Assembly: GCA_031835245.2 (NCBI GenBank)
Contig: JAVKOQ020000030.1
Span: 62,001-126,000, forward strand
From: Balamuthia mandrillaris
Lineage: Eukaryota
Direction: 5' to 3'
Length of the DNA stretch: 64,000 nt
Position 1 is the first letter of the stretch. Every line of letters starts with the position of its first letter. Of this stretch, positions 14,644 to 24,538 are shown in pieces. The notes under the pieces were generated by a model that saw nothing but the letters and a program-made list of their open reading frames with translations, did not search any database and had not been told where the DNA came from. The position numbers were made by a program, and so were the translations under genes.

Positions 14644-15363
14644 TTAATAGTTGACCTTCTTGATCCTCTCTACAACCTCATCCTCGGTGAGCTCGTTGAT
14701 ATCAGCGGTCTGAATCTCCAAAGCGAAGTCCCTGAAGATGGACTTGACGCTGGCCTTGTGCACGCTCATGTTGCCCTTCTTGAGGATGGAGGCCTCGGGG
14801 CCGGCGTAGGCAAAGAGGGCAAACTTGGTCCTCTCGGTGTCATCGGCGGCCTTGAAGGTCACCCTGAACAGACCGTAGTAGCACTCGTTGGGCTGGAGGA
14901 GGGCGGTGGCCTCGTTGATGCCGCCAGTGCCGGTGCCGATGACCTTGAGCTTGTTCCTGCCTTCGTAGCCCAACACAATCCTGTTTCGGCGATTCGAAAA
15001 GCGGGTTTAGAAGAAAGAAAGAGAAATTTAAAAAAAAAAAAAAAAGGGGAACAGAAAAACTCAAAACTAGAAGAAGAAACAGAGATATTTTTTTGCAACG
15101 GTGAAAAACTGATCAACAAAAAACAAAACGAGTTTTGTTCGGTCGATTGGTTTTTTGAGTTGACTTGGCGAAAGAATCGAAAAAAAAAAATCAACTCTCG
15201 ATCCAAAAAGTTTGACGAACACGAACGACTTGGCGAGAAACAAAAAACCCCTCACCAAGGGAGGAGAGAGAATATAAAATTACCAGTTGATGCTGCTCTT
15301 GTCAGCGATGTTGGAAATCGCCCTGTAGGACTCGGCAATCTGGGGGTCAGAAACGTCGCACAT
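14644..15363 (-). CDS. Coactosin-like ADF-H domain actin-binding protein (2 exons)
   Basis: MCDVSDPQIAESYRAI...INW|IVLGYEGRNKLKVIGTGTGG...RTKFALFAYAGPEASILKKGNMSVHKASVKSIF. Confidence 0.85.
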
Positions 15364-15660
15364 TTTGGAGGGGAGTGGTGTGTGTGTGTTGGGGTGTGTG
15401 TGAAGGGCACAGTTGATTATTTTTATGGGCGACAAAAAGAAAAAAGAAAATGTTAATTTGTGGAGTACCTTAAAAAAGGGAGAAATTACCCCTCGAGCAA
15501 CATCCTTAATTTATGTAACCAATCACGAATCAACATTATGCGAAAATTGGGTGAAAACTCAGCCTTTTTGAATTTCTATTGGTCAATTAAATTGCCACCG
15601 ATTAATAAAACAAGAAATCGTTTTCTTTTTCTTTCTCGTCTTTTTTTTTTTTCATGTCGC

Positions 15661-17576
15661 TTAGTGCTTGGGAGTATGGTTGGCTTGCGACAACAAGGCG
15701 ATGACCGAACGCGATGCCGGCACGCCACACAGCTCCATCGACTCAAGCGCCTCCCTCTCCTCCAGCGATGGCCGATAAGAGTAGTTGGCCATGACCCCAA
15801 AAGACTCGCCCATTCGCCACTTGGAAAGATCGGCTCGCCAGTTCAAGCTCAGCACGTGCGCTTTGTTGTGGCCCACGTGAAAGTTGGCCACTGGATCCAA
15901 CAAGTGTTGTTGTTCTTTGTTGTGGTTATTGTTGTTCTTTGGTGTTGCTTTCTCTTGAAGGATGTAATGGGCGCAGAGAGGCATTAGCTTGGATTGAAGG
16001 TCAGCACATAGCGTTTCGTTAGTGAACCAATCTTCTGTTTCTAAGGCTTTCTGTAGTTTTGCAAAACATAAGCAACAAAAACGAATGCTAAAAAGAAGAG
16101 CAATATGCAAACCAAAAGATTTTCGTGTTGAAGATGGTTGGTTCTTTGCTCGCGAAGCCATTGACGGAAGCCAGGAATAGGAGAGAGTGTCGCAAACCGC
16201 CAGAGAGCTTCAGTAGAAGTGGTCAGAAGCGTTCAAGAGAAAAAGGAGAAAGAGAAAGATAAATGGATTACCGTTTAGTTCTTCACTGAGAGCAGTTGTT
16301 GCTGCTTTAATCAGCATGCCACCCAATGGCATGCCTTTCAGACCTACACTCACGTTAATAGCAACGTTCAGAAAGTTCGAAAGAGAAGGGTCAGAGGTAC
16401 CTGGTTGCGTTGTGTGAATAGAATAAAATACAGCGGCTTCTGCTTTTTTCTCATCCTCCATTTCACACTTTTGCTTGAAAATAGTCTTCACACAAATAGA
16501 TGAAATCTTTTAGCACAAGAAGAAGAACAATAGAACAATAGAAAAAGAGTGGCAAGAAAGCAAAGGAGAAGAAAGCATCAACAAGAAGAAGAGAACCTGC
16601 ATGTCGTGAACAACATTTGGATGAAGTGAAGCATGCACGAATGCCAAAGGAAGGTTTGGCAATAAAGGATGAAAGAAAGCAAAACACCGTTTACCGACAC
16701 CTAGCCTCCTTTGAAGTTCTTCCATGCGTTCCATTGGGTGAACCAAATCTGCTGTCATTACCTATTCATCCTATTTGTTACTTATTGTTGAAATCTTTGC
16801 TGCTCTGCTCTTCTTCTTTTTGTTCTTCTTCTTCTTCACTCTCACTAGTATCTTACCTGTGAAAGGACAGGAGAAGGAGAGGTAACGGTAAGTCGTTCCA
16901 ATTTCAGGTCCTCTGGCCGCAACCTTGCGAACAAAACTCGTCTCACCCCATCCTCCACTTCCTCCAAATATCGCCTTGTCACAACTCTTTGCTTAGCGTC
17001 TCCAGTTTGTTCTGCTGCTCGGTTCTGTCGTTGTAGTTCCTGTTGAAGAGCATCAGTACAGAAGTGAGAGACAAGAGAAGAGAACGATGAAGAGAAGAGG
17101 GAAGAGAGAAGAGAGAAGCAGCAGAAGAGAAAGAAGGAGAAAGAGTATACCAGCAAACGCTGTCTGCATCCGATCAAAAACGGCAAAGCGTTTTCCCTTT
17201 GGCAAATGGCCTCCAGGATGCTTTGTCGCGTGCCGGTTTGCTGCTCCTTGGAACCGCCACACCCTTGCAAATAATGCTCCCAAAGCGAGCCTTTTCGCTT
17301 CCCCTCCTCCTCCTCCTCCTCCTCCGCTGCTTGTTCGTTCCCTGCAAGAGTGTATTCTTTGACCGCTGCTATCGCTTCCTCTGCGACCGCGTGGTTGGCT
17401 TCCTCTTCGACTGCGGTTTGACGAAGCTGACAAAACGACCGAACGAACGAGGAAAAGGCGGTGAAAGGAAGTGGAGGAGGTTGTGGTTGCCTGTGCACAC
17501 TAACGAACGGTAGAGCGGTGCGTTGCTTTGCGGCTCTCCCAACCGCCGCATCGAACCAACCTTTTCTTCTTCTCAT
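15661..17576 (-). CDS. MLYCD: Malonyl-CoA decarboxylase
   Basis: VHPM...RRLGVGKRCFAFFHP...PLAFVHASL; AVFYSI..TQPGLKG..LG..LIK; LLDPVANFH...LNWRADLS...SFGVMANY. Confidence 0.9.
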
Positions 17577-17621
17577 TTTATTTTTTCTTTCTTATATTTT
17601 GATCGTCGATCATCTGATGAA

Positions 17622-17717: not shown

Positions 17718-20496
17718 TCACCAATGTCGAATGGAACAAAGTTCCACTCTCCACCGAACGCATTCCAACTGTTGCAACCTTCTTCTTCTTTCTTCTGCTT
17801 CTTCTCCTCCTTTTTGTTGTTGACCTCCTGCTTCGTTCTTCTCTTGTCCCATTGACACATCCCTCATCACCCATTCCGAAAGTTTGCGACAACGTCGGCC
17901 CAGGCGACGGCTGGAATGAAGCCCCATGAACTGATACTTCCTCTCGTCCTTCAACCCGGTGCCGTCACAGGCTTTGCACTTTTGCCGCTTCTCCTTCAAC
18001 AGCATCTGCTTTTGTTGGTGCCTTTGTTGGTGCTTGTTCTTTGTCTTCTTCTTGTTCTTGCTCCTTTGGAGAAGGTTGCTCTGCTTTCCACAAACGCGAC
18101 AGAGCACGTATTTGCTGCTATAGAGCATTCGAATGGATTGGGTGGTGGTGAACATCGTCATGTCAAAGAGCTCCTCCAACGCGTTTTGACTGGTGATAAA
18201 CTCTGGAAGGCGAGCATTGTTGCTGACTGTTTCGTTTTGTTGTTCCTCTTTGTCTTCATTTTGAGCTGAAGAAGAAGAAGAAGCAGGAGGAGGAGGAGAA
18301 AAGTGTTGAATGAGTTGGCGGATGCAACGTTTGTGCTGGTCTTCGTTGACTAGGAGGTTGGGCCACACAAAGTGGAAGCCGTACTTCCAGTTGACCTGCG
18401 GTCGATGGCTGTGAGTGAACGGGCCGCTTGTTCCACTTAGCGAAAACACTGATGGATCATTCAAGTCTTCTTCTTCCTCTTCTTCCGTTTCTTGTTCTTT
18501 TTGTGCTTGTGATAAAGGTGAAGAAGAGGAAGAGCAAGGTGATGAAGCAGAACTAGACAGTGAAGAAGACAAGAAGAGCTGAGAGACAATCGAAGTAATG
18601 CCTGGGATAAAGTGAGCGATAACGTCGGATAAAGGAAACGGCTGAAAGGAGGATGAAGAGGAGGCGTCCTCGATGTTGAGCGATGGATGACTGCATTTGA
18701 TGTCGAGGTCTATGTAGAGACGATAGAGAGGGCTGCTTCGTTGTTCCACCACCCAAAGCTGTTCTCCTCTTACGACAGCTTTTGTGTACTCGCTAAAGAG
18801 TTCATCTTCGAAAGCTCAAGTTAGTCAAGATAACGCTCAGAGGAAAGAAGAAGGAGAAGAATAAGGAAGAAGAGAGGAAGCAGGAGGAGAATAAGAAAAA
18901 GGAGGAGGAGAAGAAGAAAGAGGAAGAGAAACCTTTAAGCGAAGCATCTATTGCAAACTGAGGCTTATCGCCAGAAGTCCACCAAAGGTGAGTGGTGCCC
19001 TCCGCCATGCCTTTGTTGATCTCTCTTTTGTGCCTGTTGTTGGCTCGGAACCACGACAACATGTCCGTTTCGGTATCAATGTCGTACCACGTTAAAGATG
19101 GTTTGATCCTTTCCTCTTCATTCCCTTCAATGAACGTTGGTTGGGTATGGAGGAAAGTGAGAAACCGGCAAAGAAGGAAAGAAGCGATAAGCAAGAAGGA
19201 AGCGAGAACAAAGAAACAGAAACAAGCGACAAAGCAAGAAAGAAAGAAACGCCAAGAAAGCGGCAGGAAAGCAAGTAAACCTGAATTGAGAATATCTTCT
19301 TCAAAGCGCATGAGTTGGCGAAGAAAGCTGGAGTTCGGCCGAATGAAACTTCTCTTCCTCTTCAGGGCCACATACGCGTCCTTCAGGCTCATCCTTTCCT
19401 CTTCCTCCCTTGCGCTCTTCATCTCTCCAAAATAATAATGCACAACATAAGCCAAAACGACCGCCACCGAACGACTCTTTCCCAACGCGCAATGCACTAA
19501 CACCTTGTTTCTCTTTGGTTGTAGTCGTCGTTGCTCGCTTTCACCTTCTTCACCCTCGTTTTGGCGTGCTGCCTCGTCGATGAATGCAAAAGCATCCGGC
19601 AGAAAGCGAAGAAGATTCTCTTTGACGTCGTCCATCATCATAAGCTGCTTGTAGCCTCCTCGAAGGACTCCATCATATCCTTTTCCTTCTTGCCTTTCTT
19701 CTCTCTCGTCTTCATCGTTGTTTTGTGTGCCATTAGCAGAAGAAGATGAAGAGTGAGGACGAGGACGACGAGCAGGCCAGTCTCCAGCGACGTTGAGGAT
19801 GTGGGTAATGCCTTGTTGCAGCAGCGCAGCGTCATCCTCGGCATCCGCCCCGCTGCCAACGTACAAGAACCCAGGCAACACCTCGGTCATTCCTCTTGGT
19901 AACTTGTTCAACTGAAGCAAACGTTACCAACGAAAATAAAAGAGAGAGGAGAAAACGAGGAGAAGCGCGAAGGCGCAGAGACGCAGAGAAGAAGAGCAGT
20001 GCAAAGAGAGAAGTGAAGAGAAGCAGAGACGCAGAGACGTGTGAAGAGAGAAGCATACAGTTTTCTGCCATTTTTTCGACAGGAAAGGCGCGGCGGGCTG
20101 TTCAGACGAAGAAACAGCGTTGACCTCATCCTCTTCCTCCTCCTCTCCGCTCGTGTCCTTCTCCTCCGTCGCCGAGCTTTTCTCTCTTTCGCCGACTGGT
20201 ATTAGAGGAGCCCCAGAAGAAGAAGCGAGCAGCCAAACGGTTTTCTTGCCTTTCTTCTTGCGTTGGACCACCCCCTCCTTCACCAACTGCCGCAGCAGCC
20301 TGTTCACGTCCTGCGCCGTCATCCTCCGTCCCCTCTGCTTGCCTCCCTCGCCGTCCGCCGAAGAGGAGAGCTCGCTATTATTGCAGGCGAGCAGCAGGCT
20401 GGTTTTGTCGTGCGCGGCAGCCGCAGTGGCGCCCAACACCCGCACGATGCGCTCCTTTTGCCACGCGGCGGCCACCGGTGTTGCTCCTTGGCTCAT
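17718..20496 (-). CDS. Zalpha-like wHTH / dual-specificity phosphatase / NCLDV-type AEP primase-like fusion (about 782 aa)
   Basis: Exons 20496-20059, 19911-19281, 19124-18933 and 18805-17718 (438+631+192+1088=2349 nt), all GT-AG and in frame. Motifs: DVNRLLRQLVKEG...VW; VHCALGKSRS; LYIDLDIK, GFHFVWP, LFD, SIRMLYSSK, CRVC...CKAC. Confidence 0.8.
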
Positions 20497-23816: not shown

Positions 23817-24031
23817 CCTCTCTCTTCTTTTTTACCACAAGAAAGTAAGAAAGAAAGTCCAACTTCAGTTCATGCTTTGAACCTAAACTCAACAAACACA
23901 GAGAAGGAGAGAAAGAGAGAAAGAGAGAAAGAGAGAAAGAGAGAAAGAGAAGGAGAGAAGGAGAGAAGGAGAGAGAGAACGTCGCTAAGGAAACGCCTCA
24001 AAAGGAAAAAAGCCAAGGGAAGAAAGAAGAA

Positions 24032-24538
24032 ATGGAAGACAACAACACGGCACCTCAACACGCCAAAGAGGAAGCAGAGGAGGTGGCAGCTCAACCGCAA
24101 CAGCAAGTCTATACCCACCAGGTAGACTTGCGCGAAACCATTCGCGCGTCCTCCACCGACGAGGCCGTTGCCCTCTTCCTTCAGGTGGTGTGGAGAGACG
24201 GCGGCGGGATGCCTGGCAAGGTGGTCATCGAGGAGGAAGGCGACCCTTCCACCATGGTCGGCAACCTTCGAAGGGTGGGCGGCGGCGTGCGGGAGCAGAT
24301 CTTGGAAAGGTGCACGGACGAGGTGCTCTACAAAGTGGTCTCCGGGATGATGCCCGTGAAGACCCACTTGGGCCGGGTGCGCTTCACGCAAAGCGAGAGG
24401 GGCGAGGAGGTTCTGGTGGAGTGGCGGTGCAGGTTCACGCCGTACTGGGGGTTGGGGTGGGCGGTGTCCTGGCTCATCTCCACCTCGTTGACGAAGATGC
24501 TGCAGACGCTGCGCGAGAGATCTGTTGTTACCGCTTGA
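24032..24538 (+). CDS. SRPBCC/START-like (polyketide cyclase-type) ligand-binding protein, intronless
   Basis: VGNLRRV...VREQIL...VLYKVVSG.MPVKTHLGRVRF...VEWRCRFTP with a C-terminal helix. Confidence 0.7.
   Translation: MEDNNTAPQHAKEEAEEVAAQPQQQVYTHQVDLRETIRASSTDEAVALFLQVVWRDGGGMPGKVVIEEEGDPSTMVGNLRRVGGGVREQILERCTDEVLYKVVSGMMPVKTHLGRVRFTQSERGEEVLVEWRCRFTPYWGLGWAVSWLISTSLTKMLQTLRERSVVTA

Follow-up and report, generated by a model that had tools for sequence, protein, structure and literature searches.

The main finding of this study is that a four-exon spliced gene of Balamuthia mandrillaris, confirmed here as a real amoeba gene, joins a wHTH (winged helix-turn-helix) domain, a dual-specificity phosphatase (DSP) and an AEP domain in one predicted protein. 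As judged from protein sequences, the DSP-AEP arrangement represents a family that spans three amoebozoan phyla and is new here. We propose, with an even chance of being right, that the Balamuthia protein would serve RNA break repair as a module that heals ends and adds nucleotides. The gene was found in a window of 64,000 nucleotides, the whole stretch of DNA analysed here, with the features listed below at their positions in the window.

20059..20496, minus strand: exon 1 (aa 1-146), winged helix and acidic linker, seen in X1 RNA pieces
20227..20478, minus strand: winged helix-turn-helix (aa 7-90), three helices and a hairpin in the AF2 model
19912..20058, minus strand: intron 1, GT-AG, 147 nt, spliced in two X4 reads
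19281..19911, minus strand: exon 2, phosphatase of the MKP/atypical-DUSP type (aa 147-355), from Pfam DSPc, PDB match and fold
19125..19280, minus strand: intron 2, GT-AG, 156 nt, spliced in the X1 contig and X5 reads
18933..19124, minus strand: exon 3, encoding the AEP's N-terminal portion (W-x-D-I, SW, THLWW), kept in relatives and aligned with viral TH[LFV]LLxGG
18806..18932, minus strand: intron 3, GT-AG, 127 nt, CTAAC at 18824-18820, gapless homology across the joint
17718..18805, minus strand: exon 4, AEP core, stop codon at 17720-17718, from Pfam AEP_C962R
17967..18101, minus strand: CxxC-(Lys-rich loop)-CxxCxGxG ribbon, an insertion behind motif III (aa 656-700)
14644-17591 and 20900 onward: neighbouring genes for an ADF/cofilin-family protein, malonyl-CoA decarboxylase and an Avl9-family protein, and a polyketide-cyclase/START-like ORF

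Our analysis bears out the gene structure proposed in an earlier sequence-only reading of this DNA: splicing of the four exons at GT-AG introns gives 782 residues with no internal stop, CTAAC lies in the last intron, and the predicted product exactly matches the NCBI model P0001 of Balamuthia mandrillaris. An in-frame stop lies immediately 5' of the exon 1 start codon, and pyrimidine content is 78-86% in the introns versus 40-48% in the exons, with intron 3 taken to an alternative acceptor at 18815. This second acceptor, 9 nt from the one at 18806, would give 785 instead of 782 residues; the acceptor at 18806 yields a gapless alignment to the relatives across the joint. The RNA check that had been suggested for the three junctions is positive for intron 2, whose joint (19123->19280) occurs in an X1 contig and 3-4 X5 reads, and for intron 1 by two X4 reads only, and it returned no intron 3 joint among the RNA joints listed, at low coverage and with 3-5% of each raw RNA run read. 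The prediction of intron 3 rests on homology and the NCBI model. The X1 contig, 633 nt long, starts within the phosphatase exon, includes its active site and ends at 18998 in exon 3. Because intron 2 is spliced out of this contig, one RNA carries the phosphatase together with the earliest conserved residues of the AEP, which agrees with the single spliced gene claimed earlier rather than with separate transcripts. Only the spliced form of intron 2 is present among the RNA forms listed; the intron is in frame and free of stops, and its retention would add 52 hydrophobic residues between the DSP and the AEP. Run X6 contains essentially nothing but repeat matches, and runs X2 and X3 contain the introns and behave as DNA from another strain.

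The X2 contig and a second variant list also allow a comparison of strains, for which the domain boundaries were drawn manually; three sites are common to both lists. Among the 40 of 126 X2 differences that were listed, the domains have nine synonymous and one non-synonymous changes, the linkers have six and 13, and 11 fall in introns. The 24 in-gene rows of the second list include 11 synonymous and three non-synonymous changes in the domains and three and seven, respectively, in the linkers. The strain differences in the domains look like a purifying pattern. The adjoining genes are ordinary host genes, with the polyketide-cyclase/START-like ORF near 23849-24538, and the locus is therefore not regarded as a viral insertion. 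An intron of the neighbouring malonyl-CoA decarboxylase gene (~16758-16852) is spliced in X1. By tblastn, no separate kinase or ligase genes were found within the 64-kb window.

The phosphatase domain fits its earlier description as an intact dual-specificity enzyme in loop, acid and fold. The HCALGKSRS loop (CX5R) is intact at about 19494-19468 on the minus strand, D240 aligns with the MKP general acid, and fold comparison with the MKP/Slingshot type gives Z 21 and an rmsd of 1.4 Å over 142 residues. Pfam DSPc matches at 3.4e-20, the best PDB match is MKP-4/DUSP9 (3.7e-13), and the PDB fold matches of the full model are filled by this domain. The RNA phosphatases PIR1 and BVP are farther away (Z 12.9-13.3 versus about 21), a comparison of folds that does not reveal the substrate. 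From sequence and model, the DSP appears closest to MKP/Slingshot-type protein phosphatases. NCBI labels P0001 as 'tyrosine protein phosphatase yvh1 [Balamuthia mandrillaris]'. Yvh1 consists of a DSP followed by the Yvh1 zinc-binding domain. The match to yeast Yvh1 is limited to aa 229-351, and in P0001 the AEP follows the DSP in place of that zinc-binding domain; we therefore reject Yvh1 identity, and the name is a best-hit transfer from the phosphatase domain.

The N-terminal module is predicted to be a generic winged helix. A single-sequence fold had a pLDDT of 41, and an AF2 model built from a 13-sequence alignment was used instead; it shows helices at 7-23, 31-40 and 61-73 and a hairpin at 77-90, with block pLDDT of 72-89. 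The DVNRLLRQ...TVW stretch lies in this fold, so the wHTH part of the earlier assignment stands. The same stretch had been read as a Zα-pattern domain, and this part fails. Zα determinants are NxxxY and pPxW (PMC11298590). The Balamuthia domain shares with the Zα proteins ADAR1, ZBP1 and E3L a winged helix, an Asn in helix 3 (N65) and a Trp in the wing (W88), but it differs from them in having R69 in place of the Tyr and no prolines ahead of W88, in scoring below the Pfam cut-off and in not being kept in relatives. Helix 3 reads NRLLR instead of NxxxY, its Asn not kept in the aligned relatives, and the wing reads KKTVW instead of pPxW, where the relatives end in TPFY or TPYY. Pfam z-alpha (PF02295) reaches 15.5 bits, below its gathering threshold of 21, with an E-value of 0.019, and ranks fourth among wHTH families; all Pfam winged-helix matches of the domain are sub-threshold, mostly to DNA-binding wHTH families. 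Two relatives have a positionally equivalent domain, a weak similarity with 28% identity and blastp E-values of 0.05-0.09, and neither matches z-alpha (0/2). A profile of the three N-terminal domains retrieved no Zα structure at E<=10. A winged-helix-type N-terminus was found in 3/10 relatives and is absent from most family members. With both determinants absent, the Pfam score below cut-off and two relatives lacking a z-alpha match, the Zα domain is rejected.

All catalytic motifs of the AEP domain are present. IDLD, GFH and LFD, previously assigned to motifs I-III, and CxxC are found in P0001, and the catalytic residues are D453/D455 (18710-18702), H565 (18374-18372), D635 (18164-18162) and R646. 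E441, H565, D635 and R646 are invariant in 45/45 aligned rows, and D453 and D455 are kept in 44/45. P0001 matches Pfam AEP_C962R (PF23162) at 1.9e-7 and 31.9 bits, above the cut-off of 23. With PPL4 (PF18188), P0001 scores 21.5 against a cut-off of 25, which 14/17 family proteins pass at 26-46 and one viral AEP passes at 26.6. The inserted ribbon is present in 13/16 family rows and 8/28 viral representatives. A UL52-like zinc finger motif occurs in 0/16 family rows (about half of these are incomplete or were trimmed where the AEP ends, and eight have their own complete C-terminus) and, as a pattern, in 21/28 viral representatives; likewise, PF03121 matches 0/17 family proteins and 5/5 viral AEPs scanned. 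In human PrimPol, primase activity requires the UL52-like finger, and polymerase activity does not (PMC4027207). Since all catalytic residues are kept and the PrimPol-type priming finger is missing, the AEP likely extends existing ends instead of starting primers, and the term 'primase' in the strict sense is not supported for it.

The relation of this domain to giant viruses was considered with family profiles and a tree. In three family-profile PDB searches, C962R of ASFV is the only AEP match, and PrimPol is not listed at E<=10. The profiles also retrieved stand-alone AEPs on viral contigs, two of them beside the NCLDV markers capsid and capping enzyme. Alignment by hhalign with three viral-type AEPs gives 99.4% and E 2.8e-21 over 240 columns including the ribbon, and Foldseek finds a medusavirus protein at E 5.8e-7. 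Together with the PF23162 score, these matches confirm the likeness to stand-alone NCLDV AEPs suggested earlier, and homology to those proteins, not obviously to PrimPol, is supported. The tree comprises 45 rows (16 family, 28 viral and P0028) and 173 columns, with the ribbon excluded and short fragments omitted; the viral representatives were picked at 60% identity from 87 unique sequences. A 100/100 branch separates the 16 family rows from the 29 viral-type rows. In the phylogeny that had been called for, the family is thus separate from the NCLDV-type rows and not nested among them; the tree has no outgroup and no PrimPol or PPL4 sequences, and it gives no donor or transfer direction. The absence of the UL52 zinc finger and the separate amoebal clade lead us to judge that the AEP is not a recent viral insertion. 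Eukaryotic primpols are held to derive from an NCLDV-like source (PMC6222260). The amoeba family shares with A468R-like stand-alone NCLDV AEPs and with the N-terminal domain of ASFV C962R the TH pre-motif, KYGxH, motif III and RM, full-length homology and, in one viral subgroup, the ribbon; it differs from them in having no UL52 finger or helicase, in containing introns and in forming a separate clade. It differs from eukaryotic PrimPol (CCDC111), too, in having no UL52-like zinc finger. The ribbon-bearing subgroup of giant-virus stand-alone AEPs comprises L001, L018, L052, L055, L058, L060-L063 and P0028, and in L001 an mRNA capping enzyme is encoded near the AEP. In the 1.5-6 kb flanks of 122 viral AEP loci, neither a DSP nor a kinase or ligase was found.

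The search for orthologs in other amoebae was productive. With exon 4 as the query, exhaustive phmmer retrieved 28 proteins (E<=0.001), with named members from Discosea (Balamuthia), Tubulinea (Arcella, Pyxidicula) and Evosea (Cavostelium). A DSP-like domain lies immediately N-terminal of the AEP in 10/10 distinct relatives with upstream sequence (P0001, P0002/L013-14, P0003/L015-17, P0004, P0006, P0011, P0019, P0021, P0023 and L012). CX5R is intact in 7/10 and degenerate in 3/10 (P0004, P0006 and P0011); these three have lost the DSP catalytic loop, as pseudophosphatases do, with AEP motifs and ribbon intact. In 3/10 the DSP-AEP pair lies between an AAA_33 P-loop kinase in front and an RNA_lig_T4_1, T4-Rnl1-type ligase behind. 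The kinase-DSP-AEP-ligase order is found in single proteins of Pyxidicula (P0019) and Cavostelium (P0023) and in ordered same-strand exons of a genomic locus (L012). P0023 has two HxT motifs of the 2H phosphoesterase type besides its kinase and ligase, and no other phosphatase was found in P0019, where the DSP is the sole candidate 3'-healer. P0001 has neither kinase nor ligase and groups with the short forms (97/89). An AU test of the long and DCX-bearing forms as one clade gives p 0.31.

RNA repair is favoured because of what the long relatives add, a P-loop kinase and an Rnl1 ligase, sometimes together with a 2H phosphoesterase; the kinase and ligase partners suggest that the ends on which the AEP acts are probably RNA. 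In the proposed mechanism, nucleic-acid binding would fall to the winged helix and to the basic loop of the ribbon; the DSP would strip a 2'- or 3'-phosphate, or bind or regulate through phosphate; and the AEP would add a few nucleotides to an existing 3'-OH, with no primer start. A kinase would then phosphorylate the 5'-OH and an Rnl1-type ligase would seal the break, both fused in the long relatives and presumably encoded by separate genes in Balamuthia. The DSP may remove a blocking phosphate, but its nearness to protein phosphatases and its degeneration in three relatives call for caution. AEPs in RNA-repair proteins are a known theme: divergent AEP families have been described in predicted RNA-repair multidomain proteins, primarily kinetoplastid (PMC5862659), and the heal-and-seal parts of Trl1 are a kinase, a 2H phosphoesterase and an ATP-dependent ligase (PMC6379707). 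Counting for RNA repair are the constant DSP-AEP pairing and its kinase and ligase flanks in 3/10, the 14 of 17 family proteins above the PPL4 cut-off, the missing UL52-like finger, the purifying look of the strain variants and the role of the DSP as only 3'-healer candidate in P0019; counting against it are the short form of P0001 and its place in the tree, the P0001 score below the PPL4 cut-off, the closeness of the DSP to protein phosphatases rather than to PIR1 or BVP and the degenerate CX5R of three relatives. More tentatively, it is possible that LigD-type end joining has an RNA counterpart in Amoebozoa, in which a finger-less AEP related to those of giant viruses, with its phosphatase, replaces nucleotides missing at breaks before a kinase and Rnl1 ligase seal them, Balamuthia having kept the phosphatase-polymerase half and a targeting winged helix.

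Other explanations have to be weighed against RNA break repair. The winged helix could as readily point to DNA, and the short wHTH-DSP-AEP form might be a gap-filling or lesion-bypass DNA polymerase, with the winged helix serving for recruitment and a protein phosphatase for regulation. The weak matches of the N-terminal domain to mostly DNA-binding families, the DNA polymerase activity retained by a finger-less PrimPol core (PMC4027207) and the lack of an RNA ligase in the Balamuthia protein all speak for this. However, all other nucleic-acid enzymes fused to the family AEP are typical of RNA repair (Rnl1, 2H motifs, PNK-type kinase), and we consider a DNA polymerase somewhat unlikely. The MKP-like sequence and fold of the DSP, and the loss of its catalysis in 3/10 relatives while the AEP motifs remain invariant, would also fit a signalling protein phosphatase or pseudophosphatase scaffold, with the AEP making a nucleotide signal or tailing specific RNA and no break repair involved. 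This leaves unexplained why kinase and ligase are fused to the pair in two phyla and in L012, and we regard it as unlikely.

The sequence-only reading itself had suggested a Zα-type sensor of Z-nucleic acids coupled to a domesticated viral primase and directed against giant viruses. A wHTH fold with N65 and W88, the weak z-alpha match (E 0.019) and the homology of the AEP to NCLDV AEPs agree with it, but the domain has neither of the determinants named in PMC11298590, three other wHTH families score higher than the sub-threshold z-alpha, 0/2 relatives match z-alpha, no Zα structure was retrieved at E<=10, and most family members have no such N-terminal domain at all; this makes an antiviral Zα sensor very improbable. 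To an artefact of the gene model, or a recent viral insertion beside a host phosphatase, we give almost no credence. In its favour, intron 3 is missing from the RNA joints listed and intron 1 is seen in only two reads, but the spliced contig connects the DSP active site with exon 3 and the same fusion recurs in three phyla; against an insertion stand the 100/100 branch that sets the family apart from 29 viral-type rows and the ordinary host genes next to the locus.

Setting RNA break repair beside known systems, we find no description in the literature searched of the DSP-AEP fusion or its amoebozoan family; Burroughs & Aravind 2016 may overlap. We take the RNA-repair prim-pols of that work to be Pfam PPL4 (PF18188) and PTP-SAK (PF22784). 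PPL4-type proteins resemble the amoeba family in placing an AEP within kinase/phosphatase/ligase polypeptides of microbial eukaryotes. The amoeba family differs in scoring barely over the PPL4 cut-off and usually higher to AEP_C962R, in its fixed MKP-type DSP and inserted ribbon and in being amoebozoan, whereas the predicted RNA-repair proteins are described as primarily kinetoplastid (PMC5862659). The long relatives share a P-loop kinase, an Rnl1 ligase and, once, 2H motifs with T4 Pnkp/Rnl1 and fungal Trl1; those systems differ in having no polymerase, and the Balamuthia protein in having no kinase and ligase. To our knowledge, the RNA repair systems characterised so far heal ends and seal them with no resynthesis of lost nucleotides. 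Bacterial LigD consists of an AEP, a phosphoesterase and a ligase. As an analogy only, it resembles the long relatives in coupling an AEP polymerase to end healing and ligation, and it differs in acting in DNA end joining and in having another AEP clade, phosphatase and ligase. The occurrence of an AEP in LigD is noted in PMC5862659. AEPs in RNA repair have so far been predictions, and this family makes the prediction directly testable in vitro, with single-chain kinase-DSP-AEP-ligase proteins from Pyxidicula and Cavostelium and a stripped two-enzyme form from Balamuthia on offer. It would, in addition, be a record of an ancient exchange between viruses and eukaryotes, involving an AEP lineage other than PrimPol and a shift from priming to the extension of ends.

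A minor observation concerns a doublecortin/ubiquitin-like segment before the DSP in P0019, P0021 and P0023, and by similarity in L012, for which Pfam gives an E-value of about 7e-4 in P0021 only. In the long forms it sits between the kinase and the DSP. This segment might anchor the enzyme on microtubules, or it might simply be a module that binds proteins.
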